From IMG/VR virus record IMGVR_UViG_2667528074_000001: a stretch of 21,136 nt of DNA, one strand, 5' to 3'. How positions within the stretch are numbered: position 1 is the stretch's first letter; each line of letters starts with the position of its first letter. This DNA is from a virus. Taxonomy: Duplodnaviria; Heunggongvirae; Uroviricota; Caudoviricetes. The position numbers were made by a program, and so were the translations under genes. Positions 7,229 through 19,800 of this stretch are shown piece after piece. Under the pieces are notes generated by a model. That model had not been told where the DNA came from and did not search any database. It saw only the letters and a list, made by a program, of their open reading frames with translations.

Positions 7229-9178
7229 TTAACGCCTGAAAGGTGAATACCCAACGTCATGGGTGATTTTCATAAAGGGATCGCCTGTTTTCGGCAAATC
7301 GATGACACGCATTCCAGGCGGCGCGTTGTCAAACGTCACCTTAAGTTCGCTGCGGGTTGCCGGTGAAGATGAAAGGTTTAACAGCTGATTCCTTTCCAGT
7401 GATACATTCGGGGTGTAGCGTTTTTCTGGAGATAAATACCCATCACCACGTGGCATCTGCCATCCGGTCATGTCATAGACAAAATCATGGAACTGTTTGC
7501 CCCACTCGTCGAACTTATCATTCAGACCAAATCCACTGTTCAGCGCATCAGCCACAAAATTTTTAACAAGCCAGGGATGTTCTTTTTCAAACTCCTGCGC
7601 CATCATGCCGAGCTCAAGCAATCCCCCAATGAGGCTGATCTTTCCGAGGCCCTTTAATTTCAGGGATGTTTTACCTGCCGCCGCTGTCCATTGATTCTGA
7701 GCGGCTATTGCTGCACGAATGCTTGCCACCGCCTTCACACCAATATACAGGGCAGAAACCGTTGCTATTGTTTTTACTGCCTGTTCCCATCCCCCCATTG
7801 CTCTGACAACCTGATCAACCTCCTGCCAGACTTTTTTCACAACCGGCCCGACCGTTTCCCAGTTATCAATAATGAGATACGCCCCTGCCACCAGTAACGT
7901 AATGAGTCCCTTTGCCGGTGTCATATTCATCACACCACTAAGGATTTTTCCCATCCGCGACAGCGAGCCAATGGCAACACCAAATGTCAGCAGTGCCAGC
8001 CCCGTTTTCGCGATGGTTTTTACGACCTCAGGATTTTCTCTGACAAACGTGCGCACTTCTTCCAGAAAAGGCTTCATCTCTTTTATGCCTTCATTGAGTG
8101 AAGGCAGGAAGGTTTCCCCCAGCGTGGAAGAAATCGCATTGATCTGGTTCTTCAGCAGCAACAACTGGTTTTCCGTCGTCGCGGCACGGGCGGCATATTC
8201 TTTCTGCATTGAGCCGCCATACTGCTGCGCATCCGCCACACGATTAAAATTGGTTCGCAACAAATCCAGATTCGTGAGCAGCGGCGCGATGGCTCCCAGA
8301 GATTCCTTCCCGAACAGCGCATTCAGCACTGCAGCCTGTTTTTCTTTCGGCACTTTCGCCAGAGAATCCAGTACATGCAGCATGGCACCCCGGGCATCTT
8401 TCTGCATATCCGCCGCCAGCTTTTTCGGGTCAATGCGCAACAGGCGAAGCGCTTTTTTCTGCGATTTGGTGGCAGAATTCCCCGCTGTCAGCGACAGCAT
8501 AAAATTCTTTATCCCCGTCGCCGCAATTTCTGATTCCACCCCCATTCCGGCAATGGTTGCCCCCATTGCGGCAATCTCTCCGGAGGCCACACCCGCAACA
8601 CTGCCTAAAGGGCCAATACGGGTCACAACATCAGAAATCTTTTTCGCACTTGCAGGACCGGTATTACCAAGATAGTTAATCTTATCCGCAAGTCCTGCCA
8701 CCTCACCCTGTGTCAGTTTGAAGGCAGTGCGCCACTGTGCCATCATCTGACCGGATTCTTCCGCCGTGGTGTCAAAGGCCACCCCCATCTTCACGGCGTC
8801 GTCAGTAAACTGCATCAGCTCGTCACGGGCGATGCCAGCCTGACCACCCGCCGCCACGATTTCGGCGATACCTTCCGCCGACATGGGCAGTTCTGTTGAC
8901 AGGTCGCGCACCTGTTCCGTCATTGCCTTAAACGCTTCCGGCGTATCCAGACCATCCACCACTTTCCGGACATCCGCCATTTTTGATTCAAGGGCAATGG
9001 CAGATTTGACCGGGAGCGCCAGCGCCCCCAGTACTGCGGTTCCGGCACCCGCTGCGCCCAGTGACAGACTGGCAAACTCCTTTTTAAAGCCTTTCAGCTG
9101 GCGCTGCATCCCTTTCAGCGGTGCCGACACCTTATCCACGGCAGTGATGATCGCCTTCAGCTGAAAACTGTCAGCCAT
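7229..9178 (-). CDS. Tail tape measure protein
   Basis: 649-aa ORF, Ala/Gly-rich with predicted coiled-coil and hydrophobic segments. Follows the chaperone gene. ATG at 9178..9176 confirmed by eye. Confidence 0.9.
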   Translation of the reverse strand: MADSFQLKAIITAVDKVSAPLKGMQRQLKGFKKEFASLSLGAAGAGTAVLGALALPVKSAIALESKMADVRKVVDGLDTPEAFKAMTEQVRDLSTELPMSAEGIAEIVAAGGQAGIARDELMQFTDDAVKMGVAFDTTAEESGQMMAQWRTAFKLTQGEVAGLADKINYLGNTGPASAKKISDVVTRIGPLGSVAGVASGEIAAMGATIAGMGVESEIAATGIKNFMLSLTAGNSATKSQKKALRLLRIDPKKLAADMQKDARGAMLHVLDSLAKVPKEKQAAVLNALFGKESLGAIAPLLTNLDLLRTNFNRVADAQQYGGSMQKEYAARAATTENQLLLLKNQINAISSTLGETFLPSLNEGIKEMKPFLEEVRTFVRENPEVVKTIAKTGLALLTFGVAIGSLSRMGKILSGVMNMTPAKGLITLLVAGAYLIIDNWETVGPVVKKVWQEVDQVVRAMGGWEQAVKTIATVSALYIGVKAVASIRAAIAAQNQWTAAAGKTSLKLKGLGKISLIGGLLELGMMAQEFEKEHPWLVKNFVADALNSGFGLNDKFDEWGKQFHDFVYDMTGWQMPRGDGYLSPEKRYTPNVSLERNQLLNLSSSPATRSELKVTFDNAPPGMRVIDLPKTGDPFMKITHDVGYSPFRR

Positions 9179-9262
9179 GCTTCATCTCCTCGTTAATGCG
9201 GACGGCCTCGGCTTCCAGTTCTGTAAACTGCGAAATAGCCACCCGTCGCAGCTCCAGTGGAT

Positions 9263-9592
9263 TCAGTTTCCAGAACCAGGCAACATTGTAGAGTCGTTTC
9301 CGGAGGTGCTTCCCGTCTCCGACTGGGTAAAAAAACGCAGGATCTGCATGCTGGTCTTAAAAATATCCAGTTTTGCCATCTGCGCCGCCGATGAACGCGG
9401 GATCCCCGCCAGCAACGGGATATATTTCAGCGCCACCTGGCTGTCCAGTTTAATACTGCCCTCACCGGAAATAATGAAAGGAAAACCCAGGGCCTCGATT
9501 TCGTCATACGTGGGTTCACGCAACTCCAGCACATGCAGCGTTTCGTTATGCGCTGTCACCGGTTTTTTTAAAACAATTTCTGTCACGCTCAT
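9263..9592 (-). CDS. Tail assembly chaperone, zero-frame product (109 aa)
   Basis: ORF between the tail tube and tape measure genes. Contains the slippery T7 run at codons 87-88 (see regulatory feature 9329..9335 and findings). Confidence 0.72.
   Translation of the reverse strand: MSVTEIVLKKPVTAHNETLHVLELREPTYDEIEALGFPFIISGEGSIKLDSQVALKYIPLLAGIPRSSAAQMAKLDIFKTSMQILRFFTQSETGSTSGNDSTMLPGSGN
9329..9335 (-). promoter_or_regulatory. Predicted -1 programmed ribosomal frameshift site (slippery heptamer T TTT TTT)
   Basis: Minus-strand sequence CTG CGT TTT TTT ACC inside the chaperone ORF. The -1 frame is open from here for 52 codons to a TGA at 9173..9171, which overlaps the tape measure start. 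Confidence 0.6.
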
Positions 9593-9948
9593 TACTGATA
9601 TCCTCCCTCTTCGCCGTGGAATTCAAGATCTGCCGTACCTTCTTCGGCATTATGGTTTGCTTCGCCGTGCAGCCATGCCGCCGAAAGCACATACACCATG
9701 CCGTTTGCCAGCTCGGCAGTAATCGTCATCTGATCTGAGGTGGTAATTTTGTCGACCGGAAAATTTTTGGGCACTTTAAACGTGCCCTTAACGTAAGGTG
9801 ACCGCCAGGTCTCCTTGTAATCCACATCACCAGCCATGCCGACGACATCATCCCGGACATTGGTGTTCATCGGCACTTCAATTCCACCTGTCAGCGATAA
9901 CTGCTGACCATCCACTTTAAAAAAACAGGTTCCGGCGATCTTTGCCAT
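9592..9948 (-). CDS. Tail tube protein (Mu gpM-like)
   Basis: 118-aa ORF directly downstream of the sheath gene (1-nt overlap), the typical size and position for a myovirus tube protein. Confidence 0.8.
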   Translation of the reverse strand: MAKIAGTCFFKVDGQQLSLTGGIEVPMNTNVRDDVVGMAGDVDYKETWRSPYVKGTFKVPKNFPVDKITTSDQMTITAELANGMVYVLSAAWLHGEANHNAEEGTADLEFHGEEGGYQ

Positions 9949-11444
9949 TATGCTGACTCCTCTGAATACTGGAGACGGAACTGGTTAACCACCGCAAAGA
10001 CACGTAACTGGTTAACATAATCCGGCGGGAACAGCGTGTTCAGTCGGTTCGGGTTATCCGCATCACGCTCAACTGTCAGATACTGTTTAAACAGATCGTA
10101 ATTTTCCACAATACCGGCACGCTCCATCTGACGATATGTCGCCAGAAGCTCCCCTTTGATAACGGCAGGGGTGACAATCGCCTGCCCCGGACCAAAACGG
10201 GTACCATCATTTGCCAGCTTGTGACGTCCGTACTTGCTGGTGATGACCGTTCTCAGTTTGCGAAGAACGTATGCGCTGGTATGCAGTGTTTCACTGTCCA
10301 GATAGCTGTTGTCTGCCACACCATACGCATTCTTTTTGTAGGTGGTTACGGAACGCTGGATCCGCAACGTGCCACCTTCCACATAAGCCGTCGCCACGCC
10401 GTGAGATAAAAGAGTCTGCTGCTCTGTCATGATGAATCGCTTACCTTTCGGTGCCGGAAGCATCCCCACCAGTTCCCCCGTCTGTGTCGGACGGGCCGGG
10501 TCATTGCGGATAAATACCGCTTCACGGGCAAGGCGACTGGCAACCAGTTCATCGACAGGCGACTGGGTTTCTTTTTCGTAACCGGCAAGCGTGATATGTT
10601 GCTGATTATGCATATCTCCGGCATCAACCAGCTCTGACAGCGTTCCCAGTTTTGCGGTATAGACATGCCCGTATAACTGGCGCGCATAACTCCAGCGACC
10701 ACTGCTGTCATTCATTTCGGTCATCATCATATTGATGGAAGCGGCATCGTTAAACGGCAGACCGATAAAGTCGAATGCCTCATCGCCCATAGCAGCAACA
10801 GCGGCGGTAAGATCAGGCGCGCCGCTACCCGCAGTTCCGGCTTCCGTCACGACCTGAAGCCCCGCAGGCAGAAGCTCACCACCACCAGAACCATAATAAT
10901 TCAGGCAGACAGGCAACTCGTTACCATACAGCCCCTTATGGCGGGCAGTCAGTGTCACCACACCTGCATCAGATGACGCCGCAAACGGCAGGGTGATAAC
11001 CCCGTTTACCGCTTCCTTAATCGCGGTGGCAACCGCAGTGGCATCATCGCCATTCACCACAGGCACCTGTACACGGGAGCGCCCGACATACAGACTCAGG
11101 GTGCCGCTTTCCTCTGCTTCTCCGGTAACTGTCACCCTGACCGTCGCCGCCGCCCCTCTGGCTTCCGGTACTGCAATAACATACAGTTCACCGAAAGGAT
11201 CTGTCTGACGGTAGACGTCAACCATACGCGCCAGCTGGCTCCCGGCCCCACAAATCTGACGGGCATAATCTGCCGACGGCATCAGCACCAGGCTGTTAAC
11301 CTCAATGGCGGCATCGTTGCTGGCATGCCCGATCAATAATGCAGGCGCGCTGGTCACTGCTGTATTTGCCGCAGAATTGTCCATCTCGGCGTAGAACAAC
11401 GGCACCAGCGTATTCGACGGAACAGCACTAAAACTTATTGTCAT
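9948..11444 (-). CDS. Tail sheath protein (Mu gpL-like)
   Basis: 498-aa ORF. Size and position upstream of the tube and chaperone genes. ATG at 11444..11442 overlaps the stop of the preceding small ORF (ATGA). Confidence 0.85.
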   Translation of the reverse strand: MTISFSAVPSNTLVPLFYAEMDNSAANTAVTSAPALLIGHASNDAAIEVNSLVLMPSADYARQICGAGSQLARMVDVYRQTDPFGELYVIAVPEARGAAATVRVTVTGEAEESGTLSLYVGRSRVQVPVVNGDDATAVATAIKEAVNGVITLPFAASSDAGVVTLTARHKGLYGNELPVCLNYYGSGGGELLPAGLQVVTEAGTAGSGAPDLTAAVAAMGDEAFDFIGLPFNDAASINMMMTEMNDSSGRWSYARQLYGHVYTAKLGTLSELVDAGDMHNQQHITLAGYEKETQSPVDELVASRLAREAVFIRNDPARPTQTGELVGMLPAPKGKRFIMTEQQTLLSHGVATAYVEGGTLRIQRSVTTYKKNAYGVADNSYLDSETLHTSAYVLRKLRTVITSKYGRHKLANDGTRFGPGQAIVTPAVIKGELLATYRQMERAGIVENYDLFKQYLTVERDADNPNRLNTLFPPDYVNQLRVFAVVNQFRLQYSEESA

Positions 11445-16552: not shown

Positions 16553-16734
16553 TATTTACCTCCGCCGACAGACTGCCGCGTACGGTCGAGATATCGCGCC
16601 ACCAGCCACGACCAGAACAGGCACAACGCCCCGGCAACAACAAAACCCGCCGGGGGATAAATCAGCCATGTGCCATACGCCAGCAAAAGCGCCCCCAGCA
16701 CGCCCACCAGTGGCGTGAGAATTATCAGAAACAT
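16552..16734 (-). CDS. Small predicted membrane protein (60 aa, two hydrophobic helices) between large terminase and portal
   Basis: ATG 16734..16732 preceded by GAGG (5-nt spacer), 11 nt after the large terminase stop. Stop overlaps the portal GTG. Sequence [60 protein letters not shown]. Confidence 0.5.
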
Positions 16735-16745
16735 AATGACCTCGG

Positions 16746-18503
16746 TTAAAGCGAGCGGATACCAACGCTGACCAGATGCTCAGACAGATCCGGCTCCGGT
16801 TCACCGCCATTGACCAGCATCCGGCTCATTGCTGTAAACATCGCAACAGGACCGTCGATTTTGGCTTCCGGCGTGGATTTATTCGGGAAGATATTGTCGT
16901 TTTTATCCGGTTTCACCGTAACGTTAGACATCATCCAGTTCATGACCGGGTGATTGCTGTGGTGGAAACGTCCGGCATAGACCAGTGATTCCGTTTCCTT
17001 CATGGCCTCTGACAGATTGCGGACCGTCTGCGGAACCTCCACCAGCGGTATCCCTTCTTCAGCCAGTGCCAGGCTGAACTGCATCGCACTCCACGGGTCA
17101 AATCCCAGTTCCCTCAGGTTTTCACCACCAATCCATTCCAGTAAGTCACTTTTTATCTGAGCATGATCGATAACATCACCATCCGTCAGGATGAGCTTAT
17201 CCATCTCCGCCCACTTCCGGTAAAGTTCTGCCTGCTGCCGTGAACACCGTTCCAGTCGCCCTTCCGGAAGCCAGAATTTAAAATCGGCATGAACATGCCC
17301 GTTATCCGTTCGCCAGAGTTTTGCCGCCGCACAGATATCAATCTTATGAGCAAGGTCGACGCCGACCCACATGGGATACGTTTTCAGCTCATGCTGTGGA
17401 GCGATGTATTCACACTTCCCCCACTTAATCATGTCCATCCAGGCAGACTCGGCAGTGACCCACACATTCATGTGTTTGGTAAAAAAATTCACCCGCGCCG
17501 AGACCTGTTCCTTCGCCTTTTTCGCCAGACGACGCAAATCATCCCAGCGTTTACAGATGCCCAGGCCCGGATTCGCTTTCTGCCAGACCGTTTCATCAAA
17601 CGGATCATCTCCCTCATCGAGCGTGTAAATAATCGCAAAGTAGGAGTCGTCTTTTACCGCGCCCTCCACGTCGCTGTTATAGCCTCGTAATACCTTGATG
17701 GCGTAATCGCGTTGCTCGTAACAAATCCCTTCCTTGTTAAAGCCCGCCGTGGTGATACCAAATAACAGGGACTGCAGACGGGCACCGGTTGCCGTTTCCA
17801 GAACGTCCCACACGTCGCGGGTTTTATGTGCATGCAGCTCATCAATAATGGCGCAGTGGATGTTCAGACCGTCCAGGTTGTTTGCATCCGAGGAAAGCGG
17901 TTCAAATTTTGATGCGCTCTGCTCCTGGTAAATCGCCAGCTTGTTGAAATCAAACAATCGCCCGAGTGTCGGCCTGGCTTTTCTGACCATATTTTTGGCG
18001 TCTTCAAACACGATTCTGGCCTGGTCACGCGTGGTTGCGGCTGAATACACCTCAGCCCCGCCTTCACCATCTGCCCCCGTCATATACAGACCGATACCCG
18101 ATGACAGGGTTGATTTTGCGTTTTTACGGGCGACTTCGTTGTACGCCGTCCGGAACCGGCGCACCATCACTGGGCGTCCGCTGCCATCGCTGCGCATGAC
18201 AACTTCCCCGGTCTCTTCATTCACCAGCGGAATGACAAAACCAAAAATATTAATGAGGATAAATACATGCCAGTCCATCAACTCAATGGGCTGACCTGCC
18301 AGCGCCCCTTTTACATGGGGCACAAATTTGTAGAAATTCAGGATGTGCTGCGCACGGGGTTCACTGAAATAAATCCCCCGCTCTTCGCCGTACTTCAGAT
18401 CATCAAGAAAACGCTGGCAGGCCAGACGGACAAATTCGCCAGCGACAATTTCTCCTGCAACAACACGTTCGGCGTAGCGGATCCCGTCAGCCACTTTTGC
18501 CAT
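16746..18503 (-). CDS. Terminase large subunit
   Basis: 585-aa ORF. ATPase motifs present (Walker A-like VARKNAKST, Walker B-like [10 protein letters not shown]) plus a C-terminal nuclease region. ATG 18503 overlaps the small terminase stop (TGATG). Confidence 0.93.
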
Positions 18504-18985
18504 CAGTCTCTCGCTTTTAAAAGTTCCGCCAGCGGATCAACATCATCCGGTCCGGCGGTATTTACTTTCGCCCGGCTTGCCGGTGACATACCAAACTCTG
18601 CAAGCATCGCCCGGATCCGCTTCCAGGCATCCGCTTTCATCGCCGCAGCCGGATGTGCCTTGATCATCACATCGCCATTCTGCGTTTCCGTGCGGTAGGT
18701 ATAACCCTCAGCATCGAGTGTTTCGCAGTGATGCCGGTATTCGGTGTAGGCTTCCACCAGTAACTCGAGTGCACGCGCATCAAGCTGAGAAATGATCCCT
18801 TCCGCATTCAGCTCTTCCGCCATTCGCCTGAACCAGTACTTCCCCTGCGCCCCTAAATGTTGCGGAATTTTAGGGAGACCTTTTTCATCCTTTTTAGCGG
18901 TTTTTTTGTGGTCTTTAACGGGGCGCTTCGAGGGGTTGCCTCGAATCAAATGCAGGCGTGGCGGGGTTTTCGGGGGTCCTGACAT
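18503..18985 (-). CDS. Terminase small subunit (P27 family)
   Basis: 160-aa ORF. N-terminus MSGPPKTPPRLHLIRGNPSKRP is typical of P27-type small terminases. Immediately upstream of the large terminase. Confidence 0.85.
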   Translation of the reverse strand: MSGPPKTPPRLHLIRGNPSKRPVKDHKKTAKKDEKGLPKIPQHLGAQGKYWFRRMAEELNAEGIISQLDARALELLVEAYTEYRHHCETLDAEGYTYRTETQNGDVMIKAHPAAAMKADAWKRIRAMLAEFGMSPASRAKVNTAGPDDVDPLAELLKARD

Positions 18986-19132
18986 AATCGGTTTTACCTA
19001 TCAATCGTTTGATCGCATTCCCAAAAAAAAGTTTTCGAACCTGCGGCGATGCGAAGAAGGGTTGGCGGGCGGTCCCGGACAGCCAGGGCTGCAGGGATTT
19101 GACCCGCCCCTCCCAACAAGTGAGAATAATTA

Positions 19133-19483: not shown

Positions 19484-19542
19484 AGAATTTCACTCTCCTG
19501 ATGGTAAAATAACCATTCCTTAAAAACCTATACGGAGAACAA

Positions 19543-19755
19543 ATGAAAAATACTATTTCAAAAGGATTTCACCGGACAGGCGTTCTGTTGGCTATTTTGG
19601 TGTTGATGTTGAGCTTTGGTTTCTTTTTATTAACAGGTGCTGGTACAGGAATCTCGTTATTTGCTGTATTAGTTTCCCTGGTATGTGCCTTACTGACATA
19701 CGGCATACTCAGACTGGTCGGATGGGCCGTTAACGGATTCATAAAAGATAACTAA
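19543..19755 (+). CDS. Small membrane protein (70 aa, two predicted TM helices), moron-like, opposite orientation to the late operon
   Basis: ATG 19543 preceded by GGAGA (6-nt spacer). Sequence MKNTISKGFHRTGVLLAILVLMLSFGFFLLTGAGTGISLFAVLVSLVCALLTYGILRLVGWAVNGFIKDN. Followed by the stem-loop at 19765..19789. Locally AT-richer than the flanking structural genes. Confidence 0.55.
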   Translation: MKNTISKGFHRTGVLLAILVLMLSFGFFLLTGAGTGISLFAVLVSLVCALLTYGILRLVGWAVNGFIKDN

Positions 19756-19764
19756 AACATTATC

Positions 19765-19789
19765 GCAGCCCCTCAGTGTGAAGGGCTGC
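19765..19789. terminator. Stem-loop between convergent genes (putative bidirectional intrinsic terminator)
   Basis: Plus strand GCAGCCCCTCA-GTG-TGAAGGGCTGC: an 11-bp stem (one mismatch on the plus transcript, a G-U wobble on the minus transcript), followed by moderately U-rich sequence on both strands. Lies between the stops at 19755 (+) and 19801 (-). Confidence 0.55.
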
Positions 19790-19800
19790 TGTAATGCCTG

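Follow-up and report, generated by a model that had tools for sequence, protein, structure and literature searches.

The subject of this analysis is the tail assembly chaperone gene in a 21,136-nucleotide (nt) stretch of DNA, hereafter the window, from the IMG/VR virus record IMGVR_UViG_2667528074_000001 (Duplodnaviria; Heunggongvirae; Uroviricota; Caudoviricetes). Translation of this gene is predicted to involve a -1 frameshift at a U UUU UUU heptamer, yielding a fusion protein of 140 amino acids (aa) beside the 109-aa chaperone, a reading to which we assign a probability of roughly 0.87. It is a well-supported, unannotated new case of the known class of tail-chaperone frameshifts, closest to the E/E+E' pair of phage P2 (its listing in Xu et al. 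2004 is unconfirmed). The finding is an ordinary one in the sense that a chaperone frameshift before the tape-measure gene is the textbook expectation for long-tailed phages. The elements concerned are the following, with all coordinates given as positions in the window:

9263..9592, minus strand: 0-frame open reading frame (ORF) of the tail assembly chaperone, 109 aa, 11.8 kDa, the 'E/G-like' short product (from the ORF list; PF10109).
9329..9335, minus strand: slippery heptamer T TTT TTT in X XXY YYZ phase, codons 86-88 being CGT TTT TTT.
9171..9329, minus strand: -1 frame extension, the predicted 'E'/T-like' domain, 52 codons followed by TGA at 9173..9171 (from translation).
9179..9262, minus strand: the 84-nt 'intergenic gap' of public annotations, read here as the 3' part of the -1 extension (from the third-position substitution bias in the -1 frame).
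7229..9178, minus strand: tape measure protein gene, 649 aa (PF10145 at 6e-44), with its ATG at 9178.

The chaperone ORF starts with an ATG at 9592..9590 and ends at 9263. Codons 86-88 of its 109 specify R F F, and the run of seven T residues (T7) in them, read from 9335 to 9329, lies in the phase required for simultaneous slippage. In the -1 frame from 9329 the sequence continues as YPVGDGKHLRKRLYNVAWFWKLNPLELRRVAISQFTELEAEAVRINEEMKHG, and the proposed coding sequence (CDS), complement(join(9171..9329,9329..9592)), encodes 88+52 = 140 aa with a computed mass of 16.0 kDa. Residues 1-88 are common to the short product and the fusion, and the last 21 residues of the 0-frame product (TQSETGSTSGNDSTMLPGSGN) form a serine-, threonine- and glycine-rich tail that is not conserved. 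Across the junction the fusion reads ...QILRFF-YPVGDGK..., with FFYPVGDGK as the predicted tryptic junction peptide and FFTQSETGSTSGNDSTMLPGSGN as its 0-frame counterpart. The stop codon of the extension overlaps the tape-measure ATG by 8 nt (ATGGCTGA), the distance from the 0-frame stop to that ATG is exactly 84 nt, and the Shine-Dalgarno (SD) sequence of the tape-measure gene, AGGAG at 9190..9186, lies within the coding sequence of the extension. This layout had been proposed in an earlier note made by a model from the letters alone, and its coordinates for the ORF, the heptamer, the 52-codon extension, the overlapping TGA and the 140-aa fusion all agree with our own minus-strand translation; its mass for the short form (about 12 kDa) was also right, while that for the fusion (about 15 kDa) was too low.

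Two further observations concern the ends of this gene. The last codons of the extension (...INEEMKHG*, 9171..9192) contain both the AGGAG and the start of the tape-measure gene, and because of this two constraints, one from the ribosome-binding site and one from protein function, may act on the near-invariant C-terminal RINEE(M/V/I)KHG that is seen in the phiP27/SfIV/ST64B branch. Near the start of the gene, codons 7-10 (GTT TTA AAA AAA CCG, 9563..9572, minus strand) offer the heptamers T TTA AAA and A AAA AAA, which were considered as second slip sites and rejected, as the -1 frame closes within 6 codons and the motifs are unconserved. A -1 slip there would stop after 5-6 codons and leave a peptide of about 15 aa, and the place is probably a leaky spot rather than a signal.

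A single occurrence of this kind is suggestive and not decisive, because heptamers and long open -1 frames are frequent in the window. Its 24 genes (6413 codons) hold 38 in-phase XXXYYYZ heptamers, 4.4% of their codon positions are followed by at least 52 open -1 codons, and three other in-phase heptamers also have at least 50 open -1 codons downstream. The T7 heptamer is the sole one that lies near the 3' end of a gene with a -1 frame that fills the gap and ends on the next start. Chance is ruled out by the relatives, since 64 of 65 distinct ones keep the arrangement.

These relatives were drawn from viral contigs and species-representative genomes (116 loci, 65 of them distinct) and range over Yersinia, Edwardsiella, Pantoea, Mixta, Kosakonia, Atlantibacter, Buttiauxella, Scandinavium, Derxia and a Methylococcales metagenome-assembled genome. 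They are not one recent clone, their protein identity being 28-40%. All of the first nine relatives (9/9) have an in-phase T TTT TTY at ...FF codons and a -1 frame that is open to the tape-measure start, and the pattern is kept in the SfV, AH07, EPP-1 and YeP1 lineages, in which the DNA is unalignable past the first third of the chaperone gene. Over the whole sample, the in-phase T TTT TTY stands at ...[R/G/N]FF codons in 64/65 distinct relatives, and in the same proportion the extension has 50-59 codons and an end point between -3 and +14 nt from the tape-measure ATG, an 8-nt overlap being the commonest case. The codon preceding the run varies (CGT, GGT or AAT, for R, G or N) with a third base that is always T, and the run itself is T6 or T7 only, with just T6 followed by C or G in 22 of the 64 distinct variants as well as in P2. 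The neighbouring features vary freely: the 0-frame tail past the slip site has 3, 8-9, 14 or 21 codons depending on the lineage and is unconserved, the +1 frame is open for anything from 2 to 153 codons, and upstream the -1 frame stays open over 59 to 152 codons in which no start is conserved. The earlier note had suggested aligning homologous phages to see whether the -1 extension is conserved; this comparison has now been run, with the result just given. The exception is locus L030 (IMGVR_UViG_2529292715_000008), which has an intact T7 and a 1-nt insertion (GGAAAC to GGAAAAC) 30 nt downstream that fuses the frames. Among phiP27-type viral contigs we found no T6 or T8 variant of the window's T7 site, and T8 occurs in none of the 212 complete E. 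coli genomes that carry the SfIV-type site.

The substitution pattern points in the same direction. For 23 distinct phiP27/SfIV/ST64B-type sequences, the variable sites in the 84-nt 'gap' are distributed 8/5/23 over positions 1/2/3 of the -1-frame codons, and the summed pairwise synonymous:nonsynonymous differences come to 3088:2222 when codons are read in the -1 frame, against 1008:4628 for the 0 frame and 383:5227 for the +1 frame, so that the synonymous excess is confined to the -1 frame. These counts indicate that purifying selection in the supposed gap acts on the -1, not the 0, frame. At the protein level, an alignment of 19 diverse predicted fusions, with identities down to 28%, has A105, P112, A130 and R132 as invariant and W108 and I133 as near-invariant residues of the extension. 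Between phiP27 and SfV the extension (36% identity) is about as conserved as the N-terminal domain (41%). A tblastn search of 2.3 Gb of phage DNA with the window's extension reached 'non-coding' stretches of YeP1 (2e-8) and of SfV/SfI/SfII (2e-4).

The family of the gene is that of known frameshifted chaperones. The chaperone ORF matches PF10109 (Phage_TAC_7) with E=1.5e-7 and 31.8 bits against a cutoff of 25, and all 19 diverse relatives match it too (best 4.7e-18). PF10109, titled 'Phage tail assembly chaperone proteins, E, or 41 or 14', is the family of P2 E and Mu gp41. This match and the position of the gene between the tube (9592..9948) and tape-measure (7229..9178) genes, all on the minus strand, bear out its identification as a tail assembly chaperone by the earlier note. 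In P2, E+E' is made beside E by a translational -1 frameshift in the FETUD tail operon that operates without downstream structure (Christie et al. 2002, cited in PMC3091744), and the P2 database record, in which E has 91 aa and E+E' 142 aa, joins the two frames of the latter into one CDS by a -1 shift at T TTT TTG. An hhalign comparison of our fusion family with P2 E+E' gave a probability of 85% and E=6e-6 over 119 columns spanning both domains, placing the family's V-x-G-F-F on the P2 slip site V-V-G-F-L and its W-x-x-N-P-x-E-L on P2 H-W-P-P-S-E-L. Searches with the extension against NCBIfam and PDB sequences gave no match, and an attempt to deepen the P2 E' profile from viral contigs added no depth, all 80 loci being 98-100% identical to P2. 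The alignment suggests that the C-terminal domain is a remote relative of P2 E' and not a member of PF06528 (Phage_P2_GpE). The G/GT-like -1 frameshift that the earlier note had predicted is thus supported by the conservation of heptamer, phase and extension, by the selection on the -1 frame, and by the homology to P2 E+E' with its aligned slip site.

In the mechanism that we propose, the 109-aa chaperone would come from the majority of ribosomes, which keep to the 0 frame. A smaller number would slip by -1 on U UUU UUU while tRNA-Phe occupies UUU UUU in both P and A sites, re-pair perfectly and read 52 further codons to the TGA overlapping the tape-measure ATG, giving the 140-aa fusion; we infer that this slippage is ribosomal. 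In E. coli, U_UU.Y ranks second among A-site tetramers in its tendency to shift, heptamers of the form H_HHU_UUY belong to the top class for -1 shifts, and UUUUUUU is strongly avoided in phase in genes (z=-15.6; PMC4066793). The roles of the two products can be modelled on lambda; in the model for that phage, G coats the tape measure and the T domain of GT recruits the tube subunit, at a G:GT ratio of about 30:1 and with neither product in virions (PMC5009743). By analogy, the shared N-terminal domain would coat the tape measure protein, and the rarer fusion would recruit the tube protein through its C-terminal domain, the tube protein being the presumed partner in line with the lambda gpT-gpV pair (PMC5009743). 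The tape measure would then serve as the core for polymerisation of tube and sheath, with chaperone and fusion in a fixed ratio, and neither product would be expected in the virion.

Several points weigh against this reading. The first concerns the C-terminal domain: PF06528 finds neither the window nor the SfV extension at E<=10 (the P2 control scores 2.3e-22) and none of the 19 relatives at E<=1, and the homology of this domain therefore hangs on one profile-sequence alignment at 85%. The second is the efficiency of the site, since in E. coli reporters the bare motif shifts at 0.33% for U7 and 0.12% for both U6C and U6G, the last being the P2 motif (PMC4066793). A pseudoknot lifts these values to 10% (U7), 7.6% (U6C) and 0.8% (U6G) (PMC4066793). 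Downstream of the slip site, single-sequence folds of the window give z = -1.2 and -0.9 against shuffles, with no sign of a hairpin or pseudoknot. Applied to 14 phiP27-type and 15 SfV-type contexts, RNAalifold detected neither conservation nor covariation of structure and 0 compensatory changes; the consensus energy was about 0, with four invariant pairs (-0.47 kcal/mol) for one subgroup and no pairs for the other. Inspection of the aligned contexts by eye found no conserved SD-like element upstream, a GGGAG(G) 8-10 nt upstream of the slip site occurring in two lineages only. A stimulated cassette for -1 programmed ribosomal frameshifting in the style of IS3, IS911 or dnaX was accordingly rejected, with neither a conserved downstream structure nor a conserved upstream SD. 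The bare-motif rate is well below the roughly 1:30 of lambda GT:G, which means either that a very low ratio is enough or that a stimulator was missed; the efficiency would probably be low, sub-percent to a few percent, unless context effects escaped detection here. Finally, expression of the fusion is predicted from sequence, and it is from lambda, which is a siphovirus and not a myovirus of this type, that the roles given to the two domains come.

Among other explanations, the one that fares best would make the same 140-aa fusion mainly by transcriptional slippage, RNA polymerase adding one U on the T7 and the U8 mRNA being translated normally to R-F-F-Y-P... The slip site is indeed a pure homopolymer, a U8 mRNA would encode exactly the predicted fusion, and the low ribosomal efficiency of the bare motif favours this route. 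Sharma et al. ascribe the avoidance of UUUUUUU in E. coli genes, which extends to all three phases, partly to transcriptional slippage or indels, and another T7 of the operon is T6 in one assembly. Bacterial cases of transcriptional slippage include Thermus dnaX and Shigella spa13, the extension of the latter also overlapping a length-ruler gene. However, the documented bacterial cases involve runs of about 9 A/T (PMC5009743), whereas the run here never exceeds 7 and is only T6 followed by C or G in the 22 distinct variants mentioned above and in P2. The conservation of both the X XXY YYZ phase and a pyrimidine at position 7 would be relevant to tRNA re-pairing but not to polymerase stuttering, and the homologous event in P2 is a translational frameshift (PMC3091744). 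We therefore regard transcriptional slippage as the main source of the fusion as unlikely.

It is less likely still, and in our estimate very improbable, that the -1 frame stretch has its own start and forms a small gene apart from the chaperone gene. Such calls do exist, in the form of the stand-alone family phrog_32181 and of an extra 'hypothetical protein' in phage 689R6. In the window, however, the -1 frame opens 9 codons before the T-run, and from there to the conserved motif it contains none of ATG, GTG and TTG; the earliest candidate start is a GTG that follows W-x-x-N-P-x-E-L. The chaperone alone is listed among minus-strand ORFs of at least 40 aa in this place, the relatives have no conserved -1-frame start, whereas the in-phase heptamer is invariant, and the extension matches just 5 clusters in 5.8 billion, all of them partials or indel artefacts.

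A coincidental heptamer with an open -1 frame, the 84 nt being a plain spacer with the ribosome-binding site of the tape-measure gene, could appeal to the commonness of in-phase heptamers in the window, to the three others with at least 50 open -1 codons and to the AGGAG at the end of the gap, but it is scarcely credible in view of the site, phase, extension length and end point kept in 64/65 distinct relatives, of protein-level matches where the DNA is unalignable, and of the 8/5/23 bias, the -1-only synonymous excess and the P2 E' homology. Equally negligible is a single 140-aa ORF whose T7 would be a homopolymer sequencing error or an inactivating mutation of T8, which is refuted for the family by a two-frame layout in hundreds of independent assemblies of all lineages, T6C sites included, and by the lack of T8 in the viral contigs and E. 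coli genomes considered above.

What can be cited for a single ORF are the rare database proteins in which the frames are joined, together with the one viral contig fused by a 1-nt insertion and homopolymer indels in the operon of some assemblies. In an exact look-up among about 15 billion proteins, the predicted fusions of the window and of SfV were absent, and those of the SfIV type (WP_250113089.1 = P0021) and the ST64B type (P0006) were found on 2 and 5 contigs, against at least 1000 contigs for the short forms. P0021 and P0006, which equal the exact -1 fusion, presumably arise from a T8 run. Other fused entries have different origins: P0003 is joined by the same kind of 1-nt insertion as L030, 30 nt 3' of an intact T7, and P0004 and P0005 by other indels. 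Because T8 is absent from the viral contigs and from the 212 E. coli genomes, the fused entries are taken to be rare natural 'fused-only' mutants or homopolymer/sequencing errors.

The predicted frameshift product is missing from public records. A joined CDS is annotated in none of phiP27, E. coli genomes processed by the Prokaryotic Genome Annotation Pipeline (PGAP), 720R4, F1055/ST64B, SfIV, SfV, SKA5, Pantoea AH07, Edwardsiella EPP-1 and Yersinia YeP1; all of these records leave a gap of 84, 123 or 141 nt before the tape-measure gene, and PGAP names the 0-frame protein 'phage tail assembly protein' (WP_000117144.1). The genome papers of SfI and SfIV make no mention of a frameshift, the PRFect supplement does not list SfV, phiP27 or ST64B, and the conserved prophage clusters in the parts of Sharma et al. 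covered here include no T_TTT_TTY chaperone. The annotation gap extends to phiP27 (RefSeq and GenBank), SfV, SfI, SfII, SfIV, ST64B and more than 270 complete E. coli genomes at NCBI, all of which list the short ORF and an empty 'spacer' of 84-141 nt. The proteomes of Stx2e-converting phages and of phages that convert Shigella serotypes thereby lack a predicted essential tail-assembly product, whose C-terminal domain is orphaned as phrog_32181. The family also provides a natural series of sites (T7-A, T6-C and T7-C, with 0-frame tails of 3-21 codons and no detectable stimulator) that could be used to probe the minimum chaperone:fusion ratio for contractile tails.

The surrounding genes show what kind of phage the window represents. 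A 1051-nt region around the slip site has 99% identity to the Stx2e-converting phage phiP27 and occurs at the same 99% identity in prophages of 64 of 5426 complete E. coli genomes. All 24 genes are on the minus strand, and their order is HNH, TerS, TerL, portal, S78 protease, HK97-type capsid, connectors, tail terminator, DUF2635 (Mu gp38-like), sheath and tube, followed by the chaperone ORF, the tape measure gene, homologues of Mu N, P, gp45, gp46, gp47(J) and gp48, a tail fibre and a fibre assembly protein. By this gene content the window is of the SfV/phiP27 type, with an HK97-like head and a Mu-like contractile tail. The two genes upstream of the chaperone are:

9948..11444, minus strand: tail sheath gene, 498 aa (PF04984, PF17482, PF17481), marking a contractile tail of the Mu/SfV type.
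9592..9948, minus strand: tail tube protein gene, 118 aa (PF10618 at 7.6e-34), directly upstream of the chaperone gene.

The 84 nt before the tape-measure gene are the largest junction of the tail operon, the others measuring -47 to +15 nt. The earlier note had the gap exactly right, and its statement that all other junctions are small holds for the tail genes only, because gaps in the head and terminase part of the window are 46-317 nt long. Three non-coding gaps of that part, 193, 147 and 317 nt at 16553..16745 (portal/TerL), 18986..19132 (TerS/HNH) and 19484..19800 (upstream of HNH), far exceed every junction of the tail operon.

Other heptamers in the window deserve mention. The tube gene has an in-phase T7 at codon 8 (9919..9925, minus strand), where the -1 frame is closed immediately. 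In E. coli ETEC1746 (NZ_CP122727, locus L199 303..658) this tube T7 is T6 and PGAP marks the tube gene as 'frameshifted', from which it follows that T7 runs of the operon do suffer indels or assembly errors, unlike the invariant T7 of the chaperone gene. An in-phase T TTA AAA at 18515..18521 (minus strand) lies three codons before the stop of the TerS gene (18503..18985), and the -1 frame there is that of the TerL gene (16746..18503, with an ATGA-type 1-nt overlap). A slip at this place would give a TerS-TerL fusion; the heptamer is likely a coincidence.

Compared with known systems, the chaperone gene of the window resembles lambda G/GT in its position, the common N-terminus of its two predicted products, the minor fusion, the extension that ends at the tape-measure gene, and the fixed ratio that would be required (PMC5009743). 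It differs in that lambda is a siphovirus with the slip site G GGA AAG, and no sequence-family relation was found: Pfam scans of the fusion gave PF10109 alone, which makes lambda G/GT an analogue rather than a member of the family.

Mu is the closest system in terms of neighbouring genes, as those of the window are homologues of Mu genes (sheath L, tube M, the gp38-like DUF2635 protein, tape measure gp42, N, P and gp45-48), and Mu likewise has a gap, of about 144 nt, ahead of its tape-measure gene. Mu gp41 (NC_000929), however, has no XXXYYYZ heptamer in any phase, and its 0-frame protein is not detectably similar to the family of the window's chaperone (hhalign probability 0.2%). Mu gp41 has been reported to shift by -2 (Xu et al. 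2004, Baranov et al. 2006, cited in PMC5009743). A chaperone with a Mu-type -2 frameshift was considered for the window and rejected, given that a canonical heptamer leads into the extension, which lies in the -1 frame, and that the open length of the +1 frame is unconserved. The peptide encoded in the +1/-2 frame of Mu gp41 (...ILKSGPEWALSLPLSRFFRHCQQAKTL..., L012 2553..3131) has a weak in-register match to the motif of the extension (E=0.002, probability 15%), which would be compatible with the reported -2 shift into a distantly related domain.

The PHROGs database holds the domain under another guise. With its family phrog_32181, a 63-aa entry of unknown function, the SfV-type extension gives a match at 3e-41 and that of the window one at 6e-6. 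The entry evidently represents this same -1 frame segment, taken for an ORF of its own; the difference is that PHROGs files it as an independent protein and not as the C-terminal part of a frameshift product.

The closest match overall is P2 E/E+E'. The two systems differ in that identity in the hhalign alignment is only 17%, position 7 of the heptamer is G in P2 and a pyrimidine here, the neighbouring tail genes are of the Mu type (DUF2635/gp38 and gp43-48 homologues) and not of the P2 type, and a short spacer separates the tube gene from E in P2, whereas the tube and chaperone genes overlap by 1 nt here. In both, the tail is contractile, the chaperone gene stands directly upstream of the tape-measure gene and the N-terminal domain belongs to PF10109. 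Both have a T-run heptamer (T TTT TTG in P2, T TTT TTT here) at an aligned ...V-x-G-F-[L/F], products of similar size (91/142 aa in P2, 109/140 aa in the window), an aligned extension motif A-x-x-[W/H]-x-x-P-x-E-L, an 8-nt overlap of the fusion's stop with the following ATG (that of gene T in P2), and no downstream RNA structure. One tentative explanation, which we hold as possible although rather doubtful, is that the T6 slip site is ancient and vertically inherited: it occupies the same column (V-x-G-F-[F/L]) in P2-type and SfV/phiP27-type chaperones, out to beta- and gammaproteobacterial prophages, and would be a U-run recoding site kept since the tail modules diverged, apparently without an RNA stimulator and hence at sub-percent to low-percent efficiency, with the Mu -2 shift as a derived replacement. 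In a weaker variant, the T7 form of the phiP27/ST64B/SfIV branch may add transcriptional to ribosomal slippage.

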